This document shows, piece after piece, positions 3,980 to 30,751 of a DNA stretch of 64,000 nt. Under the pieces are notes generated by a model. It was given only the letters and a program-made list of their open reading frames with translations, was not told the DNA's origin and ran no database searches. The position numbers were made by a program, and so were the translations under genes. The stretch spans positions 94,467 to 158,466 of the forward strand of contig JBHICG010000001.1 in assembly GCA_046759445.1 (NCBI GenBank), written 5' to 3'. The number at the start of each line of letters is the position of its first letter. Position 1 is the stretch's first letter. The stretch comes from Candidatus Scalinduaceae bacterium (GTDB taxonomy: Bacteria; Planctomycetota; Brocadiia; Brocadiales; Scalinduaceae).

Positions 3980-3988
3980 TTTGTATAA

Positions 3989-14640: not shown

Positions 14641-14698
14641 TTATATGACAGAGCTTTAAATATTTCTTACATAATGTTTTATGGGAGGTTAACACTAA

Positions 14699-17245
14699 AT
14701 GGAAGTAAACGATAAATCACTTTTTTACGTACATGATTATGTTCAAATAGAGAGAGACTCTCTTTATCTACTTATAGACCCCGAAACACCAAATTGGATT
14801 GTAACTGACAAAAGAGGCAGCCAGATTGTAAGCAATATTAAAAAATGTAAAAACGTTAGAAAACTGATATTCGACTATGCAAATGATTTTGATATGGAAC
14901 AAACCAGGGCATGGTTGGAAATAGATACATTTCTGAGGGATTTGATAAGGTGTAAATTCTTATCCTCAGAACCCGTAAAGAAAACTGCTTACGTCGGCAG
15001 ATCAAATTTCATTCACGCAGAAAAACTCAATGAACTATGGATTCACACTAATAATCTCTGCAATCTGACATGTCCGCATTGTCTGGTGAATTCATCTCCA
15101 CACGAGGATAAAGGTCTTCCTACGGACTCAATCAAGAAGATTATTGACGAAGCTGTAACATTAGGAACAAGCTGTTTCTATTTTACGGGTGGCGAGCCAT
15201 TTATGAGGAAAGATATTTTTGAACTTATTGAGTATGTTTGCAATCGTAAAGGGACAGAACTGATAATACTTACAAATGGAACACTTCTGAGAGGAAACAT
15301 CATTGAAAGATTACAAAAGTTTAATAAGGAACAACTAAGGATTCAGATAAGCCTTGATGGTTCAAAGCCGGAAATAAACGACCCTTTGAGGGGTAAGGGC
15401 AGCTTTGACCAAATTATCGAGGGGATTAAGAATATTATCAGGATTGGATATTCTCCGACAATAACAACCGTGGTGACAAAACATAATATTAATGATGTGC
15501 CTGAAACGACAAAGCTGATTGCACAATTGGGTGTAAAGACTCATCATCTCCTCTGGGTACACAAACGAGGCAGGGTAACTGATAATGGTAATGATTTTTT
15601 TACTTCAATAGATGAGGTAATCGAAACAACGAGAAAGGTGAAGGATGTAGCAGATAACCTGGGTATGTCAGTAGACAACATTGATTCTTACAAATTCAGG
15701 GCAAATAGCAACAGAGGAACACGTTACGATTTGGGTAATGCCTGTTACGATAGCATGTGCGTATATTCAAATGGTGAAGTCTACCCGTCTGCTTCATTTG
15801 CCGGCCATGAAGGGCTGAAATGTGGAAGTATACTTGAGAATTCCCTTAGAGAAATCTGGGAAAATAGTAATATTAGCAAGGCATTTAGAAACGCAACACT
15901 ACAGAATAAAGAAAAATGCAACGAATGTCATATAAAGTTTATATGCGGTGGTGGTGATATTGAACATTCATTCTTCTATTCTGAAAATGGGTTCAAGCTG
16001 GAAAATAATAAATTCCCTGCAGACGTTGGCGTACATGCCTTGGACCCTTATTGTGACCTGCACAAGGAGATAGTCAATGACGTAATATTTGAGCTTGCTG
16101 AGGCGAGGAAGAAGTTGTTGGAAAGAAAAACAGGGTTTACTGCTCCCGTTGTATTACGCTCAATGGGCGAAGGCTCTCTCAATTGTGGATTGACGATTTC
16201 GGATTTCGGAATAGAAAATCTAAAATCCGAAATCCGAAATCCGAAATCGGTTCGTACTCTTCATTCAAACTGTGTGCTTTCTTTTGACGTGGATAAGCCA
16301 AGAAGTATTGTACGTGAGTTTTATGGTAATGCGGCAGAAGCTCCTCAAGAGGACTTATGTTGTCCAACCAAGAATTCAACAGAAGATACAAGTCATATTC
16401 CACAGGATGTATTGGACAGGTTCTATGGATGCGGAAGTCCGACTACAATAGCAGAAGTCTCAGAAGGAGAGACGATGGTCGATTTGGGAGCAGGCGCGGG
16501 GATTGACTGTTTCATTGCTGCAAAGAAGGTTGGCCCAAAGGGTAAGATTTACGGGATAGACATGACGGATGAAATGTTAAAGGTTGCCAATGAAAACAAA
16601 CATCCGGTGGCAAGGAACCTTGGTTACGATATTGTGGAATTTAGAAAAGGATTTTTAGAAGATATTCCCGTTGATAATAATTCAGTTGATTTGATCACAT
16701 CAAATTGCGTTATCAATCTATCCCCTGACAAAAAAAAGGTCTTCGGCGAAATGTGGCGAATACTGAGGGATCACGGGAGGATTGTTATCTCTGATATTGT
16801 TTCTGAAGAAGAAACTCCTCCGTTTTTAAAAATCAATAAACAACTGTGGGGTGAATGCATCAGCGGCGCATTAACCGAAGACGAATTTATGTCCTATCTT
16901 GAACAGGCTGGCTTTTATGGACTTCAAACACTACAGAAGGTCTTCTGGAAAGAAGTGGAAGGGTATTCATTCTATTCAGTAACATTACGTGGGTATAAGT
17001 TTGAAAAGAAGGAGGGTTGTGTATACGTTGGGCAAAAGGCAATTTATCATGGCCCGTATAAGGCAATAACGGATGAAGAAGGCCACCTGTTCCCCAGGAA
17101 CGAGCCCGTTGAAGTCTGCACAGATACAGCGGCCAAACTAAGCAACCCACCTTATGCAGGACAATTTACCATATTCAATCCTGACGATGCAAATACCGCA
17201 TCATACAATTGCAGTCCCTCGGAAGAAGGCGTTCCTTGTTGTTGA
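14699..17245 (+). CDS. Radical SAM/SPASM domain fused to an ArsM-like arsenite methyltransferase
   Basis: CNLTCPHC, FTGGEP, SPASM Cys (CYDSMC, CNECHIKFIC); MTase half has LCCP, YGCGSP, DLGAGAG, SNCVIN, WGECISGA; ends in PCC. Confidence 0.88.
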   Translation: MEVNDKSLFYVHDYVQIERDSLYLLIDPETPNWIVTDKRGSQIVSNIKKCKNVRKLIFDYANDFDMEQTRAWLEIDTFLRDLIRCKFLSSEPVKKTAYVGRSNFIHAEKLNELWIHTNNLCNLTCPHCLVNSSPHEDKGLPTDSIKKIIDEAVTLGTSCFYFTGGEPFMRKDIFELIEYVCNRKGTELIILTNGTLLRGNIIERLQKFNKEQLRIQISLDGSKPEINDPLRGKGSFDQIIEGIKNIIRIGYSPTITTVVTKHNINDVPETTKLIAQLGVKTHHLLWVHKRGRVTDNGNDFFTSIDEVIETTRKVKDVADNLGMSVDNIDSYKFRANSNRGTRYDLGNACYDSMCVYSNGEVYPSASFAGHEGLKCGSILENSLREIWENSNISKAFRNATLQNKEKCNECHIKFICGGGDIEHSFFYSENGFKLENNKFPADVGVHALDPYCDLHKEIVNDVIFELAEARKKLLERKTGFTAPVVLRSMGEGSLNCGLTISDFGIENLKSEIRNPKSVRTLHSNCVLSFDVDKPRSIVREFYGNAAEAPQEDLCCPTKNSTEDTSHIPQDVLDRFYGCGSPTTIAEVSEGETMVDLGAGAGIDCFIAAKKVGPKGKIYGIDMTDEMLKVANENKHPVARNLGYDIVEFRKGFLEDIPVDNNSVDLITSNCVINLSPDKKKVFGEMWRILRDHGRIVISDIVSEEETPPFLKINKQLWGECISGALTEDEFMSYLEQAGFYGLQTLQKVFWKEVEGYSFYSVTLRGYKFEKKEGCVYVGQKAIYHGPYKAITDEEGHLFPRNEPVEVCTDTAAKLSNPPYAGQFTIFNPDDANTASYNCSPSEEGVPCC

Positions 17246-17269
17246 TGCTACTCTGGGCATGCCCTAATA

Positions 17270-17905
17270 TCATTTCAGTGTCTGGTTATACGCTTTTATA
17301 TTTATGAGCATCACCTCAACGGCCATCATGGCAGTTGACCAAATAATGTCAGTTGACAGATGTGATACACAACTTGAATCGAACAAGAGGGACGACTTTG
17401 ATGAGAATTCTTCATCACCTGACCACACAATAAGTACTACAGGCACCCTTGGAAAAGGGGAAAGCTTTAAAGAAATATCTCCATATTCTAACTGAGAACC
17501 ATCAAGACTTTTACCGATGTTTAAAAATTCCTTAAAATTATTGCTAAAGTACTCAGCTATTTTATCCAGGGGAATGACATGCGTGCCTTTCAAAAAAATA
17601 TCTCCTCCAGGTAAATCTGAGGGCCGCACGAGTTGACCCGATAACGGTAGATCTTTCGCATGAATCAAGTATCTAAGAATTGAAAGCCTTGAATATTCAC
17701 GAAGTTCTTTGACCAGGAATTTCCCTAAACTAGAAGTACCGAAGATATCTCGATTCGTCAATGAAATATAGACATCCTGACCAAAGCAGGCTAGTTCATA
17801 TGTCGAATTATGAGAATTAAAAATTACATTAGCCCTGGTTTTTACATCCTTTGAGTCAAGCCCTGTAAGTATATCCCATGCCTGTTTTTCACCTGGCCAT
17901 GCCAT
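17270..17905 (-). CDS. DUF3786-family protein (cassette)
   Basis: DLPGG..F..TH, FPRVP, W.GDEEF.S.S.LLFD. Confidence 0.8.
   Translation of the reverse strand: MAWPGEKQAWDILTGLDSKDVKTRANVIFNSHNSTYELACFGQDVYISLTNRDIFGTSSLGKFLVKELREYSRLSILRYLIHAKDLPLSGQLVRPSDLPGGDIFLKGTHVIPLDKIAEYFSNNFKEFLNIGKSLDGSQLEYGDISLKLSPFPRVPVVLIVWSGDEEFSSKSSLLFDSSCVSHLSTDIIWSTAMMAVEVMLINIKAYNQTLK
17274..17291 (-). other. Truncated attC, left arm only
   Basis: GTATAAC-CAGAC-ACTGAA at the gene end; pairs with the cassette start GTTGTAC. Confidence 0.5.
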
Positions 17906-17919
17906 AATTTATTCTTTTT

Positions 17920-17994
17920 GTACAACGCTCCGCATAACCGGCTGGTAAAGAAGCACAGCAGATTTACCAGTCTGAGTTGATGCGGTTGTTGGGC
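17920..17994 (-). other. attC site (75 bp)
   Basis: Minus strand GCCCAAC AACCG CATCAACT...CTGGTAAA/TTTACCAG...GGTTATG CGGAGC GTTGTAC. Confidence 0.9.
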
Positions 17995-18008
17995 ATTGTG
18001 CATATGCA

Positions 18009-18878
18009 CTATCTATTTAGTTCGTTCTCGATAACGTGCGACAATTTATCCCACGTTTCCTCTTGCTCAATTTCTGGCAATGATAGTAATGGTTTGTCAG
18101 GAGAATTTAATGCTTGAAATTGTGAAAGGTGCTTGTCTCTCAAAAACCGACATGGTTTTAAAATAATAGGTAGTACCCTTGTTCCTTCTAGCTCAGCTTT
18201 TTTGAGAATCGGAGGTAGTTCATTCTCAACAATGAAGTCGGATGCAAGAAAATCGGCACTTATTATTAAAACCGCTATTGCTGCCTCTGATAGTGCTTTT
18301 TCGATTTGTTCTTTCCACTTTTCTCCCGTCTTTATCTTTGTATCATCCCATACATCAACCAATCCATTTTTTTCTAATGGCTTGAGATGAACATGAAGTC
18401 TTTCTAGATGTTTTTTGTCTTCACGGCTATAACTTATAAATACTGATTTTTTATTTTTTGATTTTGCACTGTTCTCTTCTCTGTAATAGTTTAATTTCTC
18501 GTTTTTTAAAAATATATTTCCCCCTGTTCCTATAGAAGACCGCCATGTCCCTTCTATAGCACCATTACCGATAACCTTAGCATTAAGAGTTACGTTTCCA
18601 TGATTCGAAGTTGGCATGCTAATGGTTAGTGGACGGTTATTAACAAAAATTTGTTGTGTGCAATTTTTCTTTAAAAAATCCCAGTCTGGAGTCATATTCA
18701 ATGTAATATCATCATTCTTAATTTCTCCTGAAAATGAATACACTACTGTACCATGAATTGGGTCATGAATTCTGGCAATACCCGAAAGCTTGGTTAATTC
18801 CTGCTTTACTTCTGCAAATACATTTGCATTATTAGTTCCTGTGATTCTTCCTGACCAATTCCCCTCAATACTTCTCAT
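18009..18878 (-). CDS. TIR-domain protein with N-terminal beta-rich domain (cassette)
   Basis: VFISYSRED, VWDD, ISADFLASDFIVENEL including the putative catalytic Glu. Confidence 0.9.
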   Translation of the reverse strand: MRSIEGNWSGRITGTNNANVFAEVKQELTKLSGIARIHDPIHGTVVYSFSGEIKNDDITLNMTPDWDFLKKNCTQQIFVNNRPLTISMPTSNHGNVTLNAKVIGNGAIEGTWRSSIGTGGNIFLKNEKLNYYREENSAKSKNKKSVFISYSREDKKHLERLHVHLKPLEKNGLVDVWDDTKIKTGEKWKEQIEKALSEAAIAVLIISADFLASDFIVENELPPILKKAELEGTRVLPIILKPCRFLRDKHLSQFQALNSPDKPLLSLPEIEQEETWDKLSHVIENELNR

Positions 18879-18916
18879 ATAATTATCCTTTAATAGGTGT
18901 ATCTTTTAAATTTGAT

Positions 18917-18944
18917 GCTTAACGTTCAGCTTAACCGGCTGGCT
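18917..18944 (-). other. Partial attC, right arm only
   Basis: GCCGGTTAAG CTGAAC GTTAAGC; left arm absent and a MITE lies just beyond. Confidence 0.65.
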
Positions 18945-18971
18945 TTGTAGACATTTTTTCTTGGGTTTCTT

Positions 18972-19118
18972 GGGGATGCATCTTGATATTTGACATTGTG
19001 AATTTGCGGCTTACTAAAAAAAGATTTTCCTTCCATGATTTTTCAAATAATTTCTTTGATGTTTGATTTGTTTATCAATTTGTTGGTTTTAACTTTGTCA
19101 AATGTCAAATACGTCCCC
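18972..19118. mobile_element. About 147-bp MITE with GGGGATGCATCTTGATATTTGACA-type terminal inverted repeats, copy 1
   Basis: About 24-bp imperfect TIRs; near-identical copy at 21338-21485. Confidence 0.8.
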
Positions 19119-19211
19119 TATCTCCCGTCCTATCTCCGTCTATTATTGTTTTTTACGCAACTATTTTACTGCAATCCTTCGCCAAGAGGATGTTGCCGTG
19201 ACTTTTCTATT

Positions 19212-19230
19212 CTGTAGTGCTTTGTTATGT
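19212..19230 (-). other. Partial attC, left arm only, after the R-M genes
   Basis: ACATAAC AAAGC ACTACAG ten bp after the REase stop codon. Confidence 0.5.
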
Positions 19231-19240
19231 TTTTTTGTAA

Positions 19241-20359
19241 TCATTTTTCAACTTCTGCCGCCTGTCTCAATGCTAAAAATGCTTCTTTTAAAGGTTGATT
19301 GACAGCGGAATTAGGTTCATCAAGCACTAATTTTTGATATTCCTCGATAAAAGCTGTTCTTTTTCTATGAAAAAAATGCAGAAAGTGTTTTATGAACCCT
19401 ATGCAGTCAAGTATTGCTATTTCAAACTTAGACAAATCATAAATAGATTTTGCATATTCACTAACTTCAAAATCAATTTCTTCGGTGGTTATGAAAATAT
19501 AGTTATCTATGTTTAACTTAGACTCAGCAATTTTTTTAATTGCAATCTCAATATCAGATTTGGTTATTCGCTTTTCTTTCATTTCATAGCTTGTAACAAT
19601 ATTATCATCATTGATTAAAGTTACTTCAACGTCACCATAAGCACCAGTTTGTTTGTCCGCCGCATTGTGTGCTTGTAAATCATTTATTTTTTCTCCAATC
19701 AAATCTGAAACACTGTTATATGCTGCGGCAACTATTAAAATAGGTAATCTGCTTGAATTTTTACAAGCCAAGTGTTGCTGCAATAAATTAACAATTTGCT
19801 CAGATGATAGAGCAATTGATTTGTCTGAGCCTTTTAAAGTTTCGATTAGCTGTTTAATCCGTTTAGCATTTTCTTCCCGTATTATGACGAGTATTCTAAT
19901 CGTTTCTTTAAATAGTTTTTCGGCTGATAAGTTACCTTTATGGACTTCATCAATCAACTCAAGAGCTGCTTTGTATAGCTCAGGTTGTCGGCCAACAAGC
20001 TCTGTTTTGGGTGTCATTGTTGAATTTCTATTTCTAAAAGCAGGAGTCAAGTATGCAGTTGTTGTATTGCAAGGAAGGTTATGTTTTTCTATTACCTTTT
20101 GTATATACTGCTCGTCATAAGTTCTTCCTGAGTAAGCATCTTTATCCCTTATTTCTGTATATGGCTTTCTGATATCAATCTTGGAGTTGTCTATTTTTGC
20201 AGCGCAGCAGGACAATAAAAACCTTATCGGCGCTTTAATTCTTATATTCCTACAGACAAACTCTATTTTCTTCTCTAAATGCTTGCTACCAACGAAAGTC
20301 CTTTTTGCATGTATTGCTCTTTGTACATATTCTTCCAGAGTATTCAATAAATTACTCAT
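19241..20359 (-). CDS. Putative type II restriction endonuclease (PD-(D/E)xK)
   Basis: Directly downstream of an MTase; GDVE...YEMK catalytic-like motif. Confidence 0.7.
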   Translation of the reverse strand: MSNLLNTLEEYVQRAIHAKRTFVGSKHLEKKIEFVCRNIRIKAPIRFLLSCCAAKIDNSKIDIRKPYTEIRDKDAYSGRTYDEQYIQKVIEKHNLPCNTTTAYLTPAFRNRNSTMTPKTELVGRQPELYKAALELIDEVHKGNLSAEKLFKETIRILVIIREENAKRIKQLIETLKGSDKSIALSSEQIVNLLQQHLACKNSSRLPILIVAAAYNSVSDLIGEKINDLQAHNAADKQTGAYGDVEVTLINDDNIVTSYEMKEKRITKSDIEIAIKKIAESKLNIDNYIFITTEEIDFEVSEYAKSIYDLSKFEIAILDCIGFIKHFLHFFHRKRTAFIEEYQKLVLDEPNSAVNQPLKEAFLALRQAAEVEK

Positions 20360-20361
20360 TT

Positions 20362-21258
20362 TTATAATAACCTGCCTATTGTTTCGACTTCATAATTTAC
20401 CCATAGCACTTCTTTTCTTTTATCTTTTGTTGAATGTATTGTCTTCTGTGGGCCAAAATGTTTTTTCCATTTTGGAGCCGGATATAATTTATCCATTAGT
20501 TCACATTCATAATTTGATATTGCAGCTTTTCCCTTGATATTGTTTAAGACCATTGACAACTGAACATGCTCGTCATTACTCATTTCAAAACCATATGCTT
20601 TATTGTCGCCTCTTGTATCGTGAACATATGGCGGATCGCAATAAAAAAGAGTTTCCTTACTATCATACAATTGTATTACTTCAATTGCCGGTCTATTTTC
20701 AATCTGAACTCTTAAAAGCCTTTCTGCAATAAAATCAAGCTTTTCAACTCCACCAATATAACGACTGATAACACCACTCATTCCAGAACGACTTGTATTT
20801 TTGCAATTTGCCCATCTTCCAATTGTTGCCGTTTGTGCTAATCCGGTTCTTACTTGCCTCGCTCTTATATAAAACCTTCTTGCACGTTCTAACTCATCCT
20901 GACTACTATCCAACTCGCAGGCTAGAGAAAATTCTTCTCTGGAAAACGGCGTTAACAAGATTTGTTCTAAAAGTTTCTCTTTTTGAGATCGTAAAACTCT
21001 AAAGAAATTAACAACTTCTCCGTCTAAATCATTATATGTTTCTACATTAGATGGATATCTGTTGAAAAGCACTGCACCTGAACCTGCAAATGGTTCACAG
21101 TAATGATTACAAGAGGGCAAAAGAGGTAATAACCAATCCAAATGAGAATATTTTCCCCCATACCACCCAAAAGCAATTACCTTTTTTCCATTTAATCTTG
21201 TTAATGGTGAGGGAGTCTTTTTTCCGTTTTTACAATTCTTTATCTGCATTTTAATCAT
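20362..21258 (-). CDS. D12-class (Dam-like) N6-adenine DNA methyltransferase
   Basis: WYGGK, EPFAGSGAV, DPPY. Confidence 0.93.
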   Translation of the reverse strand: MIKMQIKNCKNGKKTPSPLTRLNGKKVIAFGWYGGKYSHLDWLLPLLPSCNHYCEPFAGSGAVLFNRYPSNVETYNDLDGEVVNFFRVLRSQKEKLLEQILLTPFSREEFSLACELDSSQDELERARRFYIRARQVRTGLAQTATIGRWANCKNTSRSGMSGVISRYIGGVEKLDFIAERLLRVQIENRPAIEVIQLYDSKETLFYCDPPYVHDTRGDNKAYGFEMSNDEHVQLSMVLNNIKGKAAISNYECELMDKLYPAPKWKKHFGPQKTIHSTKDKRKEVLWVNYEVETIGRLL

Positions 21259-21337
21259 CCCCTATTCTTGTTTTTTTTGAAACCCAACTCATTTATTCTT
21301 TACCCTGCATTTGTTTTATTCTTATCCATATTTTCTT

Positions 21338-21485
21338 GGGCACACATCTTGACATTTGACATTATGAATTTGCGGCTTACTAAAAAAAGATTTTCCTTCC
21401 ATGATTTTTCAAATAATTTCTTTGATGTTTGACTTGTTTATCAATTTGTTGGTTTTCACTTTGTCAAATGTCAAGATACATCCCC
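21338..21485. mobile_element. MITE copy 2 (direct repeat of 18972-19118)
   Basis: Same internal sequence; right TIR TGTCAAATGTCAAGATACATCCCC. Confidence 0.8.
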
Positions 21486-21492
21486 TATCTCG

Positions 21493-21540
21493 TCCTAACA
21501 TTGAATTGAGCAGTTTATCTGCTCAAATGACTGGTTGTGC
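21493..21540 (-). other. Short attC site (48 bp)
   Basis: GCACAAC CAGTC ATTTGAGC AGATAAACT GCTCAAT TCAAT GTTAGGA; L'' carries one extra base. Confidence 0.75.
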
Positions 21541-21658
21541 ATCATGACATCTAATTTTGTACTCGTCATCGCAAACTTGTCTGTTTGTTTATACCCCATC
21601 GTCAGCAATTTCCTTCCAAAATACGGGCGCTACCCCTGGTTTTTCTTTGGTGTAAGTT

Positions 21659-23176
21659 TTAAATATCAACGTTGAATGGGAAAACTCCTACCTCTTCCTG
21701 TAGTAATCTTTGTGCCATAACAACGTCAGGGTCATCCCGATTTTGATCGTAAAAAAGCTGGTCAATCATAGAAGTCAATATAAAAATGTTATGTGCTTCT
21801 TGTGCGTCAATAAATTTAATTTTACTAAGTGTTACACTTCTTGAGAACGATTGTGCTATTTGTAGTCCTTGGTCGTTTTCAAAACCCCGATAAACCACCT
21901 CACCTCTAGATTCGAAGTTTTTCTCAATTAGCACGCCTCCCTTTATAAAGTCTTGACGAACCGGTGGATTAACATACTTTGAGCACGAATTATTATATTT
22001 ACTAGGGTCTATATATGTCTCTGGATTTTCTAAAAAAATATTGATCATATGTTTTTGAGCATCGCAAACATTTTTGATAAACTTTAAAAATATACTTTTA
22101 TCGAAAAGATTAGCCCAAGCTAAGTCGAGAGGGAAAACTTTTTCAATCATTTTTGGAAATTTATCGGCTTCACGTAGTCCATGCTTAAAAGCTTTGTTAA
22201 CTTTTGACAGATTAGTTATATCACTCCAATCGTCAAAGAGCTGAATAGACAAGCTTGAGCCATTTGGAGGTCCCGCTTTTAATAAGTAATTGTGTATAGC
22301 AGCAAATCTAAAAGTTGGACACGCTCGCCATTTATCATCTTCATATGATCCCATTAATGACCAAAATACGATAGCTGATGCCATTTCTAAAGGCATTAAT
22401 TTGTTATGACGGTGCCAAATATTTAGTAGCGCACGGTATAATATAATATAGGGTACATTCAGTTCCTTAAAAACAATGTCCTGAAATCTTTGGAGTGACT
22501 GCTTCCCTAAATCTGACCAAATCGTCTGCATTTGGCAAATTAGCCCGGACAATTCAAATATATGGCAAGGTTGATAGATGACAGATTCAGATTGTTTTGG
22601 TGGTCGAAAAGTAAAATTTCTCATCATCTGATAATAATGCATTGTGACCGCAATTAACCGATCAAAATGATTAAGTGTTTCATTTTTAGCCAGTTTTAGT
22701 AGTGAATTGTCAAGCGTGAAAAAAGGTAAAGTACAAGGTCGGTAATGTAAACCATTTTTAAGAGGCCTCAAATCGGAAAGGTGTTTGAGCATGCTTTGTC
22801 GTTTATGATAATCATAACGAGACCAAGAAGAAATTGGTACTGGAATACAATTAAAGGATTCATTGTTTTTCATATCTATCAAATGTCCAAGAGTCTGCAC
22901 ACCGTTAAAAAGTATCACCATGCGTAGCCTCCACAACATCTGACTATATGGTGCTATAAGAAAATCATGAAAGTGGCGTACTTCGTGAGAACAAACTGAA
23001 ACCATTGACAAAGCATCAAATGCCTGAACTGGCGACAAAGATAATATTTCATTCTCAGTGATTGATCCAGCTCGATCTAACCAATTGCAGCTGTTTTGAT
23101 CGGCTACACGGATCACAACGCCTACATATTTTGGATTAAAACCCCCGTAATCAGCTTGGATAGAATTGATTATCAT
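21659..23176 (-). CDS. Hypothetical protein with HExxH motif, possible zincin peptidase (cassette)
   Basis: SHEVRHFHD and a downstream Glu in HIFELSG; 4-bp ATGA overlap with the upstream gene. Confidence 0.6.
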   Translation of the reverse strand: MIINSIQADYGGFNPKYVGVVIRVADQNSCNWLDRAGSITENEILSLSPVQAFDALSMVSVCSHEVRHFHDFLIAPYSQMLWRLRMVILFNGVQTLGHLIDMKNNESFNCIPVPISSWSRYDYHKRQSMLKHLSDLRPLKNGLHYRPCTLPFFTLDNSLLKLAKNETLNHFDRLIAVTMHYYQMMRNFTFRPPKQSESVIYQPCHIFELSGLICQMQTIWSDLGKQSLQRFQDIVFKELNVPYIILYRALLNIWHRHNKLMPLEMASAIVFWSLMGSYEDDKWRACPTFRFAAIHNYLLKAGPPNGSSLSIQLFDDWSDITNLSKVNKAFKHGLREADKFPKMIEKVFPLDLAWANLFDKSIFLKFIKNVCDAQKHMINIFLENPETYIDPSKYNNSCSKYVNPPVRQDFIKGGVLIEKNFESRGEVVYRGFENDQGLQIAQSFSRSVTLSKIKFIDAQEAHNIFILTSMIDQLFYDQNRDDPDVVMAQRLLQEEVGVFPFNVDI

Positions 23177-23529
23177 TTCTCTTTTAATAACCCCGTAGCA
23201 TTTTGAAGTTTTAGTTGGATTTCCATTTCAGTCATACCCGCAGTTATTTCTTCAGATGCAACCATCGTTCTAATTACAATTTTTTGGTTTGGGTTGTTCT
23301 TCATCCAACGTTCTAAAAGTTTAGCGAATTCTTTGCTAATAAATATACCACCTTGAATGATTGCTATTACCGCTGCCACTTCAATTATACCAAATTGCAG
23401 GTAGGTTTGTTCCTTTTTGCTTGCAATATCTTCGATTACTATGTCATTGGCTTGAGCAAAAGTTCGAAATTGTTCAACAAAAGCAGGGTCACATAGAATC
23501 TCCGTACGTACACTCTTTGGATTAGTCAT
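23173..23529 (-). CDS. Small protein with a central hydrophobic helix, EACC1-like (cassette)
   Basis: GGAG RBS; FGIIEVAAVIAIIQGG...LLERWMK...KIVIR pattern. Confidence 0.55.
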   Translation of the reverse strand: MTNPKSVRTEILCDPAFVEQFRTFAQANDIVIEDIASKKEQTYLQFGIIEVAAVIAIIQGGIFISKEFAKLLERWMKNNPNQKIVIRTMVASEEITAGMTEMEIQLKLQNATGLLKEK

Positions 23530-23562
23530 AAGCTATCTCCTTTTTTTACTAAAGTGATTATA

Positions 23563-23798
23563 ACAAGTTATTATAAAGTTTTTGGATATCACCACTATTG
23601 TAATGATATCAAGAAAACCAAGTTACTACCTTATGGAAAAGCAGCGGGAAGGTTCATTTATTTACGTTTCTGCAAAAATAAACTTAATTCAAGATGATTT
23701 AATCTCATCACACAATGCGGCATAGTCTTTATACTGTTTGAATTGAACATGTTGGAATAGTAAAGCTACATATTATTGAAGTCAAGGGAAAAGAAATG
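23563..23798 (-). repeat. 236-bp cassette-array leader (promoter plus attI-like end), copy 1
   Basis: Four mismatches against 27812-28047; identity ends at ACTTGT, at the G/TT of the first cassette (GTTATAA). Confidence 0.85.
23757..23785 (-). promoter_or_regulatory. Sigma70-type promoter facing the cassettes (Pc-like)
   Basis: TTGACT-17 bp-TACTAT. Confidence 0.7.
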
Positions 23799-23835
23799 AA
23801 GGGGTCTCAATGGGTCATCTCAATCTCAACTCAAG

Positions 23836-23916
23836 GGGTCAAGTCTGCCGATAGCTAATCTAATAAAGACTGTATACGTAAAATAATATCAGTTAAGCCA
23901 TAAGCAGACTTGACCC
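23836..23916. mobile_element. 81-bp MITE with 13-bp perfect TIR GGGTCAAGTCTGC
   Basis: GGGTCAAGTCTGC...GCAGACTTGACCC; overlaps the 3' end of the GT gene. Confidence 0.7.
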
Positions 23917-25233
23917 TTTTCGTTTATCCAATTTCCTATAACATAGTAAATTCTGGCTATGATATAGAAGGTATTTTATGATCTCAAAAATCAACAACGC
24001 AGCAAGAATACAAAAGACTACTTCAGAAACATATCTGTATCTGGTCTTTCCCCAAAAAATTAACGCGTATCCTATCCAGTTCATCATCACGATTCCGTAT
24101 AGAAAGACCCACATTCTGAAGGTATATCGGCACAAGAATAAGAAGGACAAACTAGCAGCCAAAAACAAAGCAAAATAGGTTAGTGTCAATTTGTAAAACC
24201 AATAGGTACCTTTCAGTTCTTTTGATGGCCATGGTGTTCCTTGTTCTAATCTTGGTAAGCGAGTACTCCATGCTACGGAATAAGTATCCGAAGTAAAAAA
24301 TAATTTGTACGTTCCTTTTGCAATATCCTTGGCTATTCTTAATAGGCTAGCGTTGGTTAGATACTCAAGTCCAAGTTGGTAACCGAGTTCCTGCTGCTGA
24401 ACCTCATTCTTACCGTCGAAAACTGTTCCCTTTAGAGTATGCCAGCCATATCGATTCTCATTATGAGCATAATAGAAGTTTATGCCTCCTGTGGTAGACA
24501 ATCCTGACCCCGCACCAACCAAGTAATGGTTCCGGATATACCAAGGAGCAATGGTTACACCAAAAGCCAACAAAACTAGAAATACCGACAAATATCTGTG
24601 AGCGTTATGACTGAAATTGAAATATATCATCACTAAAAGTACTGGCAAAAAAAAGATGGCCTCGCCACGAGTCAAGGCTGCTGTTCCAAATAATACACCG
24701 GACAATACTAGTCTCACAGTCCGACGAGTAGATAAATTTACACGGTTGTCGCATAAAACCAAAAAAGCTGAAAAGAGGAAGATAACGTACAAATGCTCTG
24801 AAACAAGTACTGGTGATAAGAAAACAAACGTTGGATTAAAGGCACAGATCAAAGCAGCGAGTATTGAAAGTAGTTTTTCTGAAGTTAGATATAACACAAG
24901 CCTCCATACTATATAGATCAAGAATGTGGACAGAATCACATTGACAAAACTTAACCAAGCTATTGAATTACTTATCCACATTGTGATAGCAAGAAAGACT
25001 GGGTACCCGGGAAGTCGAAACGCGGACGGATTTGGAATTCCAAGCTGACCCTGCTTCAAGAGTCCTTCAGCCAAACGTAGATACTCCTCAGAGTCTGATA
25101 CTGGAACTGGTTCAGCATATGCCCACCATAGAACTCGTGCTGCAAATCCAAACAGAATAATAAGAATGATCCATATTGGACATTCCCGCAATGATAGAGG
25201 TATGAAACCAAGAGTGTTCTTTTTTTTCATCAT
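23893..25233 (-). CDS. GT-C (ArnT/PMT_2, GT39/83-like) membrane glycosyltransferase (cassette)
   Basis: VSDSEEY, RLPGYP, SE.L, TR.E, PW.IRN, RYR. Confidence 0.8.
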   Translation of the reverse strand: MMKKKNTLGFIPLSLRECPIWIILIILFGFAARVLWWAYAEPVPVSDSEEYLRLAEGLLKQGQLGIPNPSAFRLPGYPVFLAITMWISNSIAWLSFVNVILSTFLIYIVWRLVLYLTSEKLLSILAALICAFNPTFVFLSPVLVSEHLYVIFLFSAFLVLCDNRVNLSTRRTVRLVLSGVLFGTAALTRGEAIFFLPVLLVMIYFNFSHNAHRYLSVFLVLLAFGVTIAPWYIRNHYLVGAGSGLSTTGGINFYYAHNENRYGWHTLKGTVFDGKNEVQQQELGYQLGLEYLTNASLLRIAKDIAKGTYKLFFTSDTYSVAWSTRLPRLEQGTPWPSKELKGTYWFYKLTLTYFALFLAASLSFLFLCRYTFRMWVFLYGIVMMNWIGYALIFWGKTRYRYVSEVVFCILAALLIFEIIKYLLYHSQNLLCYRKLDKRKGSSLLMA

Positions 25234-25246
25234 GAATCCTTATAAA

Positions 25247-25373
25247 GGCTAACGTTTAAGCTAAGCTAACCCGCTTAGCAAATAGAACTATGAATAAGGA
25301 TAAAATAAACAAAGAATCTAAAACTTGAAAACCGCACATGATAAAAGGGGTTAGCTTAAGCGAATGGTTATGT
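25247..25373 (-). other. attC site (127 bp)
   Basis: ACATAAC CATTC GCTTAAGCTAACCC...GGGTTAGCTTAGC TTAAAC GTTAGCC. Confidence 0.9.
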
Positions 25374-25380
25374 AATTTTT

Positions 25381-25917
25381 CTAAGTCTTGTTAATTTGTT
25401 TGAGTGCTTTAGGTACTCTTATATGTTGTTTTATTAATGGTTTTGATTTGTAAATATTAACAAATGTTTGTCTCAAGTCTTTATTTATTTCCAAGTCGTT
25501 GACAAATAATTTGTGAGCTTTTTTCATATGGCGAAATAGAGGATACGGATTTATAATAACATGATCAAAGCCATTTGGTTTTTTCAGATGTATTTCTTGA
25601 GCCCATGTCTCTTTACTACAGAGAATGATAAATTTGTTTTCCATATTGAATGAATGAACTAACCCACACCTTATAATTTTGTAAAAAATCTCAGGTTCAT
25701 AACTTTCAGGGAAATAGTTTCCAACAAAAGTCATAATTTTCTTCTTATTACCACTTGTGCTTGGACTTGCTGCTGCATAATTTGCCAATGTATCTACAGC
25801 ACAGCATATTAATATTGTTGCGCCAACTCCCTGATGTAGTTTTAGACAACTTGCAATATTTGAGTACACATATGCAGGAAAGTGTTTATTAAATCTGGAA
25901 ACATAGGGATTACTCAT
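25381..25917 (-). CDS. Hypothetical protein with HEPN-like Rx4H motif (cassette)
   Basis: Helical protein with IRCGLVH and an N-terminal CAVDTLA. Confidence 0.6.
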   Translation of the reverse strand: MSNPYVSRFNKHFPAYVYSNIASCLKLHQGVGATILICCAVDTLANYAAASPSTSGNKKKIMTFVGNYFPESYEPEIFYKIIRCGLVHSFNMENKFIILCSKETWAQEIHLKKPNGFDHVIINPYPLFRHMKKAHKLFVNDLEINKDLRQTFVNIYKSKPLIKQHIRVPKALKQINKT

Positions 25918-25929
25918 ATTAATTTTTAA

Positions 25930-26037
25930 ACATAATGAAACGGATGAGCTACGGCGGAGATGAAAAAGATTTTATGAGTCAATAATAAGTCTAGGATCGC
26001 CTAAGTCTTCGTCGTTAGCTCAAGCCGATTGTTAGAT
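25930..26037 (-). other. attC site (108 bp) with R' box ATTATGT
   Basis: ATCTAAC AATCG GCTTGAGCTA...TAGCTCATC CGTTTC ATTATGT; FRG stop codon lies inside R''. Confidence 0.85.
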
Positions 26038-26952
26038 TTTTGTGTCATTTGGAGGTGGAAACCGCATATCTCTCAAATAATTTGTTTTTGAATTATAGTT
26101 GTATGAATTAATTACATCTTGTGCAACACCATCAGCATTCATATATAAAGCCCCTCCATTAATTCCCATAAGTTCTAATTTAGCAAAAACATCAGTTACA
26201 CAATCTTTTTTAATAAATACTTTATAAAGAGTAGCTTCCGCCTTCTCTATCTCTCCATTTGGGAGATGTGTATCTGGCTCCTTATGCTTCTCGATCAATT
26301 CGTCTAAATTTTCAGCATCTATATTGCTGTAGTTAAGTGTGTCATAAAGAAAAGCTCCATGTTGCCGATGCATGCGAGAGTTATATTTTCCTGGAAATGG
26401 AATGAATTGCATCCATGGACCTGGAAAACCATCTTTAAATAGGTCTCCTTTTGGATAAAGAAAATCTTTATATCGTTTCATGACTTCATCATATTTTTCT
26501 TTTGGATCTAGAAACAGTGTAGCCCACAACCATGCCAACTTGCTAAAATTTAAAGCATAAATAACAGAATATTCCTTTTCTTTTGACTTGTAGTTTCTCC
26601 TAACTCCATTGAAAGTGAAAAATAATGCGATATATGGGGAATAACTGAAATCTAAAACGGGTGTGGGGACACCATGATGGCGGGCATATTCAAGCCAATC
26701 AAGGCGATTGTCACTTTTAAAAGGCAGCATTCCGAGCTTCGTCAGACCAACACGAAATTTGTCGATCATTTCGTCAATATCTGAACTCCATGATTCATGG
26801 GGTATTTTCCTGTGACGATTTAAGGTTGTTGTTAGTTTATAATGTTCTTTCGTATGTCCTCTAAATACAAAGTCTCTCTTTACAAGAGCAAGATTATCTA
26901 AAAACTCAAAAGCACTATTCGCATTATCAAAATGGTGATTTTCAATGCTCAT
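26032..26952 (-). CDS. FRG-domain protein (cassette)
   Basis: FRGH, HHGVPTPVLDFSYSPYIALFF, RMHRQHGAF. Confidence 0.92.
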   Translation of the reverse strand: MSIENHHFDNANSAFEFLDNLALVKRDFVFRGHTKEHYKLTTTLNRHRKIPHESWSSDIDEMIDKFRVGLTKLGMLPFKSDNRLDWLEYARHHGVPTPVLDFSYSPYIALFFTFNGVRRNYKSKEKEYSVIYALNFSKLAWLWATLFLDPKEKYDEVMKRYKDFLYPKGDLFKDGFPGPWMQFIPFPGKYNSRMHRQHGAFLYDTLNYSNIDAENLDELIEKHKEPDTHLPNGEIEKAEATLYKVFIKKDCVTDVFAKLELMGINGGALYMNADGVAQDVINSYNYNSKTNYLRDMRFPPPNDTKI

Positions 26953-26968
26953 TCTTTTTCTCTTTAAA

Positions 26969-27026
26969 ATCTAACGGCCGAATTAAGCGGGCGTGTTAAC
27001 GCTCCGACTTGAATGATTTGTTATAA
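26969..27026 (-). other. attC site (58 bp)
   Basis: TTATAAC AAATC ATTCAAGT CGGAGCGTTAACACGCCCG CTTAATT CGGCC GTTAGAT. Confidence 0.93.
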
Positions 27027-27032
27027 GATAAA

Positions 27033-27800
27033 TCATTGAAGTGCAATAGAACTTAATTTTACAAGAATTTTCCAGCCAGTAATCACTAGCCTAGTTAGAA
27101 CTGAAGTGATTATTAAACTTAATACAATTTGTCCAAATAATCCCAATGGTTTCTTTTTAAATGACGTAATTGGCCAATACTTGTCTCGAAGTTTACCCAG
27201 CAATACTAAAATGTAAGTCCATAGGTTTGAGAAAATAAGAAAAAAACCGATGAACAAAACAAAAAAGGAGTATTTTACTTTGAGTGCTGGCGAGAGGAGA
27301 CTCGCTACTATTAAGCAGAAAGAAAAGCCAGCGATGACGCCGAAAAGTTGAATAAGCAATTCAGTAAAGGGATTCCGAGTTACACCATTGTGATTTTGGT
27401 ACTGTGCGAGTCTCGTCGAAAGTCTTTTGAAAACATTATCAACCCATTTTTCATCATCATCAGATACAGCAAGATAACATCTTGAGCTATCTGAAGCATC
27501 TAATAGTATTTGTATTCTTTTTCCTTTATTTTCTAAAAGGTTTTTAACAGAGGAAAAATCAAAGATAACACGCTCAATTTTTTTTCCAGTTTCGAAACAG
27601 CGTTTTATTTCGGAATAATCTTTCCTAACAATTCCCATCCCATCGTAACGCAGGGTGTATACATTCGATTTTAGTTTTTCATCTTCAGAAAATGAGCTAG
27701 TTTCGTTTACGATAGTCTGTAAATCCGAGTTTATTGCGTCAATATCACCTATGCCAATAGTTAAATAGGGCATGAAACTATCTTTTAAGTAATCACTCAT
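27033..27800 (-). CDS. Hypothetical membrane protein: soluble N-domain plus about 3 TM helices (cassette)
   Basis: 255-aa ORF between the leader and an attC. Confidence 0.7.
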   Translation of the reverse strand: MSDYLKDSFMPYLTIGIGDIDAINSDLQTIVNETSSFSEDEKLKSNVYTLRYDGMGIVRKDYSEIKRCFETGKKIERVIFDFSSVKNLLENKGKRIQILLDASDSSRCYLAVSDDDEKWVDNVFKRLSTRLAQYQNHNGVTRNPFTELLIQLFGVIAGFSFCLIVASLLSPALKVKYSFFVLFIGFFLIFSNLWTYILVLLGKLRDKYWPITSFKKKPLGLFGQIVLSLIITSVLTRLVITGWKILVKLSSIALQ

Positions 27801-27811
27801 TTATTTACCTT

Positions 27812-28047
27812 ACAAGTTATTATAAAGTTTCTGGATAACATCACTATTGTAATGATATCAAGAAAACCAGGTTACTACCTTATGGAAAAGCAGCGGGAAG
27901 GTTCATTTATTTACGTTTCTGCAAAAATAAACTTAATTCAAGATGATTTAATCTCATCACACAATGCGGCATAGTCTTTATACTGTTTGAATTGAACATG
28001 TTGGAATAGTAAAGCTACATATTATTGAAGTCAAGGGAAAAGAAATG
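27812..28047 (-). repeat. 236-bp cassette-array leader, copy 2
   Basis: Direct repeat of 23563-23798. Confidence 0.85.
28006..28034 (-). promoter_or_regulatory. Sigma70-type promoter (Pc-like), copy 2
   Basis: TTGACT-17 bp-TACTAT. Confidence 0.7.
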
Positions 28048-28350
28048 TGTAAGTGAGATATAGGGTGGGGTGCACCGCAAAGCGCTCAAAACCAGAAAAT
28101 TAATCAAAATTAAGGTAATGTCCTAATTTCAGTATCTTTCGTATTGCTTCCTAAATTTTTAGAGTCCTTACCCGATAAATATAAAAACAAGAAAAGATTT
28201 TTTTATTAACTGTAGTTTTTAATTGACTATTTTAAAAAAAATGATTTATAATATTTAAATTACCCTAAATTATGTTATCTGCCAACACAGTACAACTTTT
28301 CTTTAAAGAACAAGTGTTATCACAAGCTTCTAATAGGACTATAATTAGCG

Positions 28351-28764
28351 TTGGTAAATGCTTATTCATGCAAGATTAAATGGCCTGTAGATGGCAAAGA
28401 AATAGTAATACGAATAGAACCAGCGTATTTTGATTTTCTTAAAATTTATTGGCCAAATGATTTTATTAATCTTTATACAGTACATGAAGTATTAATAAAA
28501 CCTAATCGTATATTCTCTGGTCTCAACAGACCTTATAGTGATAGTAGTAATAAACTATGTGTTGTTGGTAAACCTCTTTATTGGTATATAGGAAATACCA
28601 ACAACAAAGTGCCTTTTCCATCCGGCTTCGTTTATGTAGTATTTTTGAACGAAAGATACAGTGTATATGAATTTGGAGCAGAGAAAGCAGATACAGATGA
28701 TTCATTAAGTCCTATAGGTTGGAGAGATCGCTTTGGAGAACTGATATGGAAGAAAAATTCATAG
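28351..28764 (+). CDS. Hypothetical protein, possible BECR/RelE-fold toxin
   Basis: VHEVLIKPNRIF pattern; overlaps a DUF2283-like gene. Confidence 0.45.
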   Translation: MVNAYSCKIKWPVDGKEIVIRIEPAYFDFLKIYWPNDFINLYTVHEVLIKPNRIFSGLNRPYSDSSNKLCVVGKPLYWYIGNTNNKVPFPSGFVYVVFLNERYSVYEFGAEKADTDDSLSPIGWRDRFGELIWKKNS

Positions 28765-29171
28765 AACAAGTGACACAAGGCTTAAAAGGAAGTGATTTTG
28801 GCTCTAAGCAACATGAGCCTCAGATTTGGTATAACAAAGAAGGTGACTGTATTCAATTTAAGACCAGACATGTTGCGACAATAAGAAAGAGAATTGACGA
28901 ATATTTAACATTATATGCGACAATGGAAGATGAAGATCCAATTGGATTTCAATTAAAAGATATACATGCACTAGCCAGTGTACATGATATAGATTTAATG
29001 GCTATACAAGCAGATTACACTTCTAGGGATAAAAAGTTAGTTTCAATCAGTATGCTGATATTTAAGGCTTTTGCTAAAAGACCTCCTTCTATAAACAGGA
29101 TTTCTGGCTATACAGATGCATTTAGGACTATGGTAAAAGATGGAGATAATGTAAAAATTCCAGTATCATAA
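28746..29171 (+). CDS. Hypothetical protein, DUF2283-like putative antitoxin
   Basis: IWYNKEGDCIQF...IGFQL pattern; ATG at 28746 preferred over TTG at 28719. Confidence 0.5.
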   Translation: MEEKFIEQVTQGLKGSDFGSKQHEPQIWYNKEGDCIQFKTRHVATIRKRIDEYLTLYATMEDEDPIGFQLKDIHALASVHDIDLMAIQADYTSRDKKLVSISMLIFKAFAKRPPSINRISGYTDAFRTMVKDGDNVKIPVS

Positions 29172-29225
29172 TTATATGCCTATTATACAAATTCTTGATT
29201 TTCAACTTTTTAATATAAATTTTTT

Positions 29226-30065
29226 TTAGTCAACAGACCACATATATATTTTGTCAATGGTACTATCTTTATTCTTTGCACCAACCATGAAACATTTTGA
29301 TTGACAAGGAATATTCTCACCAAAGACTTCAATTCTTATCTTTAAATCACCATTATCTGTAGAATAACGCACAGGGATTCTGGTATAGTTATGATCAACC
29401 TCAATATGGCAAATATCAAAACTAAGACTATCTTCTTCTTTCCCTGCCATGTACCATTCTAATACATCCACAAATATACATTCTCCAGGAGCAATATTAA
29501 CAGATCGCCTATAGGGTTGAACGTTGTTATCCGTAAATTTAAGAATTTCCTCCCTACCAGTGGTTCCCTCAACTATCAGTTTAGCCTTAACATCTTTAAT
29601 TGTTGTTACAGAAGAATCATTGTGAATAGAAATTCTCCACACTCGCTCAAAGCGATCATATATATGTTTTGTGTTTGGATTCTTATTTTTTTGGAAAGTA
29701 TCATGACAATAACTTGGATTATTTTCAGAAAAATCTATTCGTAATTTAGGTTTTTGCTGTTCTTCTAAAAATTCTATTGTTTGCTGTTTAGAATTTATAA
29801 TATCTTGTTGTTCTTCGTAGATATCTTCAGGTACAAGACGCAGTGATTTCCATAAAAATAGAACTCCAAACATTATTATTACTCCTATAAATTCATAAAG
29901 TAATGACATTAAAATGTTATAATTTTTATTGGCTACAAGAATACCATTAATAATTGTTCCAATGATTATAGTGGCAATCTCGTATAATTTCTTTTCCTTA
30001 AAAAATTCCCAAATTTCGTTCTTTGTTCTTAAAAGGCGAATTTTGTGGTATTTTCTAGATTCCAT
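29226..30065 (-). CDS. Hypothetical protein with two N-terminal TM helices
   Basis: 279-aa AT-rich ORF with a coiled-coil-like segment after the TMs. Confidence 0.6.
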   Translation of the reverse strand: MESRKYHKIRLLRTKNEIWEFFKEKKLYEIATIIIGTIINGILVANKNYNILMSLLYEFIGVIIMFGVLFLWKSLRLVPEDIYEEQQDIINSKQQTIEFLEEQQKPKLRIDFSENNPSYCHDTFQKNKNPNTKHIYDRFERVWRISIHNDSSVTTIKDVKAKLIVEGTTGREEILKFTDNNVQPYRRSVNIAPGECIFVDVLEWYMAGKEEDSLSFDICHIEVDHNYTRIPVRYSTDNGDLKIRIEVFGENIPCQSKCFMVGAKNKDSTIDKIYMWSVD

Positions 30066-30216
30066 GCCCAGATTCTATTGTCTGGACTATGTTGTGTCAA
30101 AAAAAATAATTCAAATTAGGACACTGCCAAAAAATTAATCAATTCTTGACATAATATATGATAATCGGCTATACTAAAAGTTTATTTATAGTCCTAATAA
30201 CAAATATGTATAAGGA

Positions 30217-30690
30217 GTGTTCAAAATGAGTGAAGGTTGTCCAGGATCAAGAACGATGGATTTCAGTGAAAAAGATGAACAAGTTGAAGAAACAGGCGCA
30301 CGCCAGTCTCAACTGAAGCAATGGCCGATTCAGTTGCACCTGGTTTCTCCACAAGCACCGTATTTTCAGGAGAGGGACATATTACTTGTAGCAGACTGCG
30401 TGCCTTTTGCCCTGGCAGATTTCCACAAGGATTATCTTAAAGGAAAAAGTCTGGCCATCGCCTGTCCAAAGCTGGACTCAGAACAGGAAATTTATGTAGA
30501 TAAGATTACGTCTTTGATTGATGAATCAAAGATCAATACCTTAACGGTTATGATAATGAAGGTACCCTGCTGTATGGGTTTGACTCATATTGCAAAAGCT
30601 GGCGCCGACAAAGCTAGCCGCAAGATACCGATCAAGCAGGTAGTTGTAGATGTAGCAGGCGGTCAAATCCTATCCGAAGACTGGATTTAA
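30217..30690 (+). CDS. Fe-S cluster-binding protein (standalone C-terminal domain of ferredoxin/ATP-binding family)
   Basis: GCPGS, QWPIQL, ADC, CPKLD, VPCC. Confidence 0.75.
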   Translation: MFKMSEGCPGSRTMDFSEKDEQVEETGARQSQLKQWPIQLHLVSPQAPYFQERDILLVADCVPFALADFHKDYLKGKSLAIACPKLDSEQEIYVDKITSLIDESKINTLTVMIMKVPCCMGLTHIAKAGADKASRKIPIKQVVVDVAGGQILSEDWI

Positions 30691-30715
30691 GACTTGATCA
30701 TTTTCCAAATATAAG

Positions 30716-30751
30716 AAACTCCTGGGAAGCCAAAAGCTTCTCAGGGGTTTT
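30716..30751. terminator. Probable bidirectional intrinsic terminator
   Basis: AAACTCCTGGGAAGC/GCTTCTCAGGGGTTT hairpin between convergent genes. Confidence 0.65.

Follow-up and report, generated by a model that had tools for sequence, protein, structure and literature searches.

How does a chromosome come to hold a row of gene cassettes far from any integrase? This question is raised by a stretch of 64,000 nucleotides (nt) from a Candidatus Scalinduaceae bacterium (the window; positions 94467-158466 of contig C1), in which ten open reading frames (ORFs) lie co-oriented on the minus strand between 17270 and 27800. The genome is a 3.6 Mb draft in 145 contigs, and C1, 158 kb long, carries the whole window. 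A first-pass annotation had read positions 17270 to 28047 as an integron cassette array with defence-like cargo and without an integrase. [quoted passage not shown]

We know of no attC family in Rfam, and at the gathering threshold Rfam gave zero matches in the window. Because of this gap, we made our own covariance models from attC sites beside true integron integrase (intI) genes. Such a model describes an attC by its R''-L''/L'-R' pairing, in which the spacers stay unpaired and the 5' arm carries bulged bases. The first model, R1, was seeded from a single 60-nt site, as MAFFT did not align attC sites of unequal length, and it found four sites at E<=0.05. Its four best matches, realigned, gave R2, a model of four intI-adjacent attC sites from contig C8 of this genome and from two relatives. 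The training DNA comprised the cassette side of both integrons of this genome and of ten relatives' integrons (99,030 bases); on it, R2 returned 23 sites at E<=0.05, all on the strand expected for cassettes, and these 23 intI-adjacent sites made up R3. Zero window sequence entered any model. A run of R3 on the whole genome scored 150 of 3850 candidates and missed three of the window sites, and is not a census; a search with nhmmer and the attC alignment gave a partial list that served solely for the choice of contigs. Two scans by regular expression or alignment were dropped, one being too strict (12 matches) and the other catching generic hairpins (106 matches).

When the whole window was searched with R2 on both strands and with filters off, eight matches were obtained at E<=5, and the top five were all on the minus strand. 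The best, at 26969-27027, scored 27.8 bits (E 3.1e-05), the other four had E-values of 0.0077 to 0.031, and the sixth match stood at E 2.2. R3 found the same five sites with E-values from 5.1e-08 to 2.3e-04, the next match being at E 2. The sites recovered by both models are attC1 (26969-27027, 59 nt; R'' TTATAAC, R' GTTAGAT; 40.9 bits with R3), attC2 (25930-26038, 109 nt; R'' ATCTAAC, R' ATTATGT), attC3 (25247-25374, 128 nt), attC4 (21493-21541, 49 nt) and attC5 (17920-17995, 76 nt). They are exactly the five full sites that the first-pass annotation had listed, all on the strand of the ORFs; their lengths, from 49 to 128 nt, bear out the heterogeneity that it had described, and models trained beside intI genes accept every one of them. 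The widest gap between sites is 3.7 kb. In all five, the fold energy of the bottom DNA strand is equal to or lower than that of the top strand, and attC3 shares 85% identity across 132 nt with the attC at C104:5928-6057, which adjoins an intI. Four control loci of relatives that hold the conserved flank of the array (40,183 bases) gave zero attC matches at E<=1. By the measure of these models, the window sites and those next to true intI genes belong to one kind.

These results bear on one alternative, namely that no integron is involved, that the region is a defence island of the ordinary sort and that the hairpins between its genes act as terminators. The cargo is indeed typical of defence islands, and the island occupies a variable locus. 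However, the model matches are strand-specific and confined to five sites, one of these sites is homologous to an intI-adjacent attC, the R'/R'' signature of cassettes is present, similarity to contigs of another sample breaks at cassette boundaries (both described below), and none of the five attC sites is among the nine terminator-like matches. We find this alternative scarcely credible; within the reach of these tools it was refuted by the R2 and R3 matches, the attC3 homology and the R'/R'' signature.

The first-pass annotation had reported no tyrosine recombinase gene in the window, and this holds for the whole 158-kb contig. With both IntI proteins of the genome as queries, tblastn found nothing at E<=1 on C1, nor any remnant of an IntI in the neighbourhood of the array, and all seven PF00589 matches of the genome lie on other contigs. 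The annotation had proposed looking for intI elsewhere in the genome, and two genes score above the TIGR02249 cut-off (265 bits), at C8:67832-68788 (415 bits) and C104:2462-3400 (378 bits); both are full length and free of stops. An intI match at E<=1e-60 was found in 23 of the 41 genomes searched, this one counted. Since two intI genes are present on C8 and C104, and since attC3 so closely resembles an attC of C104, it is possible that the array is serviced in trans by IntI. Together, the attC models and the tblastn and PF00589 searches support the interpretation of the region as a genuine cassette array with no integrase nearby.

A cassette that was once circular must have, just past the crossover, six bases (TTRRRY) that are complementary to its own R''. 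Such a footprint had been claimed for three pairs. It stood for two: the cassette encoding an FRG protein begins with TTAGAT against its own R'' ATCTAAC, and that encoding a 178-amino-acid (aa) protein begins with TTATGT against its own R'' ACATAAC, each with 6/6 complementary bases, whereas the same starts match the R'' of the site in which they physically sit at 4/6. The third pair (GTTGTAC/GTATAAC) did not hold, as it consists of a single 7-mer at 17291-17285 with one mismatch. The later junctions of the array score 3-4/6 and are visibly disrupted.

The same two cassettes were found outside the array. Sequencing runs X1 and X2, the likely source of the assembly, cover the array almost fully, and run X3, from marine sediment in another study, and one further run (X4) contain small parts of it. 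Uncovered stretches in X3 and X4 carry no information, so the contigs that count are those that become unlike the window at cassette boundaries. In X3, the FRG cassette is represented by 25934-26394 and 26383-26972, with 1 and 4 differences in 461 and 588 nt (about 99% identity), and the 178-aa cassette by 25399-25935 at about 94% identity. The X3 contigs turn unlike at 25934, 25935 and 26972, at or no more than 3 bases from the cassette boundaries, and the neighbouring cassettes are not in them. Because the similarity ends at these boundaries, the FRG and 178-aa cassettes appear to sit in other neighbourhoods in an independent sample, and their identity of 94-99% in other contexts argues for an exchange of cassettes that is recent on the evolutionary scale. 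At window position 21496, one contig of X1 matches attC4 and is then unlike the window for 255 nt from the R' box on, and depth in the bin of this position is about 30 as against 17-18 alongside; the contig may come from a similar attC at another place or from a junction that varies.

The array is confined to this strain at its locus. The stretch 17265-30132 (12.9 kb) corresponds to 127 bp in G001, one of two genomes of the same genus, in which window 14677-17264 aligns with positions 2442-5038 of the locus (L032) and window 30133-30776 with 5166-5812. The second, G002, is without the stretch from 17265 to about 28100 and keeps, at 70% identity, the plus-strand gene pair at 28351-29171. To the left of the array, a gene for an 848-aa protein with radical SAM, SPASM and methyltransferase domains is 89% identical in both. 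G+C content is 33-39% in the array region and 40-45% in the core genes to its right. As the island is missing at the same locus in these congeners, the gene order of the array is not that of a conserved operon, the outcome that the first-pass annotation had named as fatal to its reading.

What stands at the head of the array? The end coordinate that the first-pass annotation gave, 28047, is the 5' end of a 236-nt module that it did not describe and that we call D1. This copy, D1b (27812-28047, minus strand), comprises a sigma-70-like promoter (TTGACT-17-TACTAT, 28034-28006), a leader of about 190 nt and a 3' attI-like core that runs up to the G at 27813. A second copy inside the array, D1a (23563-23798, minus strand), is 98% identical, and each copy is just upstream of an ORF. 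The docking site at the 3' end of D1 reads ...CAGAAACTTTATAATAACTTG|T, with the bar marking the crossover. Three other full copies (73-78% identity) and several incomplete ones are present elsewhere in the genome. Among 12 full copies from this genome and its relatives, mean identity is 79%, the -35 sequence CTTGACT is invariant (12/12), and the -10 region reads TTTAyTA; the alignment holds three conserved predicted hairpins, with compensatory changes at 5 pairs. Of 24 relatives from the family, 23 have pieces of D1, with up to 17 matches per genome, as against none of 16 genomes from outside it. Three contig joints (23610 to 28005, 23794 to 27806 and 27859 to 28005) fall within the D1 repeats; their sides span 20-38 letters, and single contigs stand behind each.

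The last 24 or so nucleotides of D1 align with the attI sites of three true integrons, that of C104 in this genome and those of relatives G004 and G011, where attI lies about 120 nt from the start of a divergent intI. Six D1 copies and these three attI sites all agree through ...AACTTG and then diverge, with eight of the nine going on with TT; the end point of the conservation is thus the crossover G|TT. At 20 D1 3'-end loci of relatives and two of this genome, R3 gave 11 matches at E<=1, and every one of them is downstream on the D1 strand. We compared the six bases past the G of D1 with the R'' of the first attC downstream: 5 of 14 pairs agreed at 6/6 and 2 of 14 at 5/6, as against 6/6 in 2 of 132 non-cognate pairs, and the true attI of C104 agrees with its first cassette at 6/6. 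From this pattern we take D1 to be an outward promoter, a leader and an attI-type site, a designation that comes from sequence comparison. At the internal copy D1a, the six bases past the core (TTATAA, 23557-23562) are exactly complementary to the R'' of attC1 (TTATAAC, 27020-27026), which belongs to the cassette behind the other copy, D1b; this may be chance, or a trace of rearrangement between the two D1 copies. In a relative (G017, locus L015), positions 523-1150 hold the 5' promoter half of D1 alone before a toxin-antitoxin-like two-gene pair, and a full D1 copy follows the pair, reading towards the 3' end of an intI. In another relative (G023, locus L014), the 5' half precedes an intI by about 320 nt and has the same orientation.

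The 21-nt core of this docking site, GAAACTnTAnAATAACTTGTT, is far more widely spread than D1. A scan for exact matches in species-representative genomes gave at least 119 stretches, with a chance expectation of about 2e-4 per genome. Among the matches listed are, by record title, Desulfobacterota, Planctomycetota (including anammox lineages), Nitrospirota, Nitrospinota and Gammaproteobacteria, together with Bacteroidetes, Verrucomicrobiales, Bacillota and one archaeal metagenome-assembled genome (MAG); near-full-length D1 appears in three of the records listed, with titles naming Scalindua or Brocadiaceae. We analysed the flanks of 80 loci, that is, 80 distinct core sites from the at least 119 listed. 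An intI or intI fragment is upstream and divergent at 14 of the 80, at a distance of 116-964 nt, five of these being fragments of 49-94 aa, and among 65 sites whose upstream sequence spans 1500 nt or more, 53 have no intI or fragment there. R3 (E<=0.1) called 41 attC matches at the 80 loci; of these, 38 lie downstream of the core on its own strand. In the 6-base test, in which 12 sites were counted as intI-adjacent, 10 of the 21 orphan sites agreed in full (6/6), as did 3 of the 7 that are intI-adjacent; among non-cognate pairs, 17 of 754 did so. One contig of 2.9 Mb holds three cores far apart, and the scatter is therefore not an assembly artefact. The present genome has nine cores, one of them beside an intI. 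One of its contigs (C128:600-700) carries about 75 nt like the C104-type promoter and attI region, including the core, with no intI upstream and an attC 1.4 kb downstream, and on these features it is a second kind of orphan attI in this genome. Taken together, these comparisons indicate that orphan docking sites are common in many bacteria and that cassettes begin exactly at G|TT there. One further hypothesis, on which we consider the case evenly balanced, is that integrons of this attI class are distributed systems, in which scattered promoter and attI modules receive cassettes through one or two distant integrases. If this is true, then a large share of CALINs and of single orphan cassettes would be working satellite platforms rather than debris, in Planctomycetota, Desulfobacterota, Nitrospirota/Nitrospinota and other phyla, and the 21-nt core GAAACTnTAnAATAACTTG|TT would mark them.

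Several observations weigh against an array that keeps the rest of an integron platform. The attC models were built by ourselves, so that their E-values are rough and are not those of IntegronFinder, and every genome compared is a draft, MAG-like assembly with contigs that cannot be linked to each other. Promoter-like matches are not enriched in the region (35, as against 42.9 expected in shuffled sequence), so that it is conservation on which the D1 promoter call depends. Half of the D1-led pairs (7/14) scored 3/6 or less in the 6-base test, and both window copies fail it, at 2/6 and 3/6; moreover, D1b reads G|TA and not G|TT. For these last two reasons, the docking of cassettes at the two window copies is a candidate event. 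Pieces of D1 with no attC nearby exist, for example on contigs C49 and C14 of this genome, and the 5' half of D1 occurs by itself before other genes. Finally, three of the eight cassette junctions are without an intact attC.

A different possibility is that D1 is a dispersed promoter and leader, whether a regulatory RNA or a small mobile repeat, with an incidental likeness to attI, and that the array is a plain CALIN formed by rearrangement or secondary-site insertion. D1 is modular and is dispersed through nearly every family genome (23/24, with up to 17 matches each), its 5' half stands alone before the toxin-antitoxin-like pair of G017 and before the intI of G023, its three predicted hairpins are conserved with compensatory changes at 5 pairs, and the TAnAAT hexamer of the core could account for the conservation. 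This hypothesis does not readily explain why the core recurs upstream of divergent intI genes or fragments at 14 of 80 sites and beside the intI of C104, G004 and G011, why conservation ends at G|TT in all nine aligned sequences, why cassettes start exactly at that point with 6/6 complementarity far above the non-cognate rate, or why 38 of 41 attC matches are downstream on the same strand. We consider it improbable.

A more serious alternative is that the array was built by an integron integrase in the past and is now frozen, its cassettes having become ordinary chromosomal genes. Signs of decay are present. The ORF of 446 aa is followed by a hairpin and a repeat and by no attC. The hairpin (23828-23924) is imperfect, with 38-nt arms, and is formed by an inverted repeat over the end of the ORF; neither R2 nor R3 calls an attC there. 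Before the TIR gene lies the 3' half of an attC (18921-18948, minus strand; L' to R' GTTAAGC) that lacks a 5' half: positions 18921-18942 share 19 of their 22 bases with the 3' half of attC5, and the best candidate for a 5' partner is no better than shuffled sequence. This was one of three half sites in the first-pass annotation and was borne out; the other two are bare 7-mers. The R-M (restriction-modification) pair is bracketed by direct repeats of a 143-nt element, D2, which has 23-nt terminal inverted repeats; D2b (21332-21474) starts right behind the R' of attC4, and D2a is at 18966-19108. The copies are 95% identical and are the only two in the genome, and among 40 relatives one 29-nt match was found and nothing more. 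The terminal repeat of D2, CTTGACATTTGACAA, resembles a palindrome that the C104-type attI region has at its -35. With the lost attC, the halved attC, the D2 repeats and the G|TA of D1b, some parts of the array are probably no longer mobile. The same direction is indicated by the failed signature at both window D1 copies, by the last ORF, of the DUF3786 family, which has no attC behind it and ends 5 nt from the conserved flank, and by the even depth of X1 and X2 across the array, which breaks only at repeats: at contig level, no well-supported deletion joint was seen at the attC sites. Contigs, however, cannot reveal rare excision. Furthermore, the five attC sites still score like intI-adjacent ones, the genome has two full-length intI genes, and a different study yielded two of the cassettes in other settings, at 94-99% identity. 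A wholly frozen array is, in our judgement, rather doubtful, and an array with its platform kept is the reading that we prefer. The array may be serviced in trans or may be a fossil: its decay argues for partial fossilisation, and activity is favoured by attC sites that are still intact, by the presence of two integrases and by the recent spread of two cassettes.

In the preferred reading, D1 would supply an outward sigma-70-like promoter and a 3' attI-type dock, with the cassettes lying behind it and separated by attC sites. An integron integrase acting in trans would have inserted and shuffled the cassettes; the likely enzyme, this genome's IntI of the C104 type, has the same core in its own attI. 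Transcription of the cassettes would start at the D1 promoters.

How does such an arrangement compare with known systems? In the available part of the survey that defined them (PMC4889954), CALINs are sets of two or more attC sites that lie less than 4 kb from each other and have no intI close by, they have five attC sites on average, and half of them are in genomes that encode IntI elsewhere. The window array is alike in each respect, with five sites, gaps of at most 3.7 kb, no intI on the contig and IntI elsewhere; it differs from what that part of the survey describes in carrying a recognisable attI-type site with a promoter, in two copies. [quoted passage not shown] Like the classical platform of intI, Pc and attI, as outlined there (PMC4889954), the module has a predicted promoter placed to read into co-oriented cassettes by way of a putative attI, with the crossover at G|TT; it differs in that no intI lies beside it and that it stands at several chromosomal loci per genome, the present one having nine cores, one of them intI-adjacent. 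A complete integron would have intI adjacent to its array, and none was found on the 158-kb contig.

Insertion at attG sites and SALINs (single attC sites lacking integrases), as treated in the available part of another report (10.1101/2022.09.11.507474), likewise attribute integrase-less cassettes to an IntI that works in trans at sites not belonging to an integron; there attG is greatly unlike attI in both sequence and structure, whereas the docking sites of this study have 21 nt or more in common with true attI and recur across phyla. Integrons have also been described, in the portions of two reports available to us, as banks of anti-phage cassettes, both in sedentary chromosomal and in mobile forms (10.1101/2024.07.02.601686; 10.1101/2024.07.02.601719). 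The window resembles these in its compact defence-type genes (TIR, type II R-M, FRG of family PDC-S15 and HEPN-like), and it differs in that the arrays in those portions adjoin their integrase and that the cargo here is defence-like by family name.

In a limited collection of the literature, we found no paper on an orphan, additional, multiple or integrase-less attI, and none on an integrase-less array that keeps a recognisable attI and promoter or on attI sites scattered over a chromosome. The array itself is of a known kind, a CALIN, and together with the orphan attI modules it would be a variant of that kind. Integrase-less clusters are about as common as complete integrons, and in the parts of the sources available their origin is debated between integrase loss, rearrangement and secondary-site insertion (PMC4889954; 10.1101/2022.09.11.507474). 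Because attI has not been recognised for most integrons, it could not be asked whether such clusters keep a docking site. The window gives a recognisable, widely conserved attI core, and cassettes that appear to dock at copies of it without an adjacent integrase, and in this way the question of origin becomes testable. Cassette arrays, which are rich in compact defence genes, could also be found from their 5' end by means of the core.

What do the cassettes carry? Read from the D1b end (all on the minus strand), the first cassette encodes a predicted membrane protein of 255 aa with no family (27033-27800). The second encodes the 306-aa FRG protein (26032-26952; PF08867 1.1e-19, PDLC04937 1.9e-36), which falls in the PADLOC candidate defence family PDC-S15, and the third the 178-aa protein (25381-25917). 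They are followed by the 446-aa ORF (23893-25233), which is membrane glycosyltransferase-like with a weak PMT_2 match, and by an overlapping gene pair for 118 and 505 aa (21659-23529) of no known family. A type II R-M pair (19241-21258) consists of a D12-class adenine methyltransferase (20362-21258; PF02086 4e-24, 86 bits; MTase_II 8.4e-57) and a SacI-like endonuclease (19241-20359; PF09566 1.9e-06, 28.5 bits with a cut-off of 19.3), and the two genes abut, as type II systems are defined. Next comes a 289-aa protein (18009-18878) with a C-terminal, ThsB-like TIR domain (PF13676 1.5e-16, PDLC00420 8.8e-21) and an N-terminal part without an assigned family; zero matches to the ThsA effector were found among the 13 proteins scanned, and the protein does not form a Thoeris pair with any of them. 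The last ORF, for the 211-aa DUF3786 protein (17270-17905; PF12654 2.1e-36), is a gene of the island that is missing at the locus in the relatives examined, and the 7-mer at 17291-17285 is the one R''-like sequence that it has. In total, four cargo proteins among the array ORFs are without a family.

The TIR, R-M and FRG genes named by the first-pass annotation were confirmed by these family matches. Its HEPN-like gene fared less clearly. The 178-aa protein has 26 homologues, and R83 and H88 of its Rx4H motif are invariant in all 22 that were aligned. Its predicted structure (pLDDT 87) was compared with known folds: in Foldseek the best was a HEPN toxin at E 0.49, and in VIA-align the HEPN entry 4nqf came first (Z 7.2, root-mean-square deviation 3.8, 113 residues aligned), with many further HEPN entries at Z 5-7, a range that is common among helical bundles. 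A HEPN-like assignment is plausible on the motif and the model. For both this protein and the 505-aa protein, the ESM Atlas returned hypothetical clusters only. From the family names, the TIR, R-M, FRG and HEPN-like cargo may be supposed to serve phage defence.

A few features of the surroundings deserve mention. The 848-aa ORF at the left flank (14699-17245) is a fusion of radical SAM, SPASM and class I methyltransferase domains. Of the 24 relatives searched, 15 keep it at full length, with 61-89% identity, and a contig end lies 1.5-3.3 kb downstream of it in three of four relatives. The empty site of G001 (L032 5040-5166, 127 bp) contains a short G+C-rich hairpin between AAC and GTT (TAATAAC...GTTATAA), in which R3 calls no attC at E<=1. 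At the array's opposite side, the 2-kb segment 28098-30144 is bounded by 32-nt inverted repeats that are 75% complementary and contains a pair of plus-strand ORFs that overlap (137 and 150 aa) as well as a minus-strand ORF of 279 aa, none of them with a family. It is missing from G001, and G002 keeps the gene pair (70% identity) without the 279-aa ORF. The segment looks like a separate small mobile insertion beside the array.

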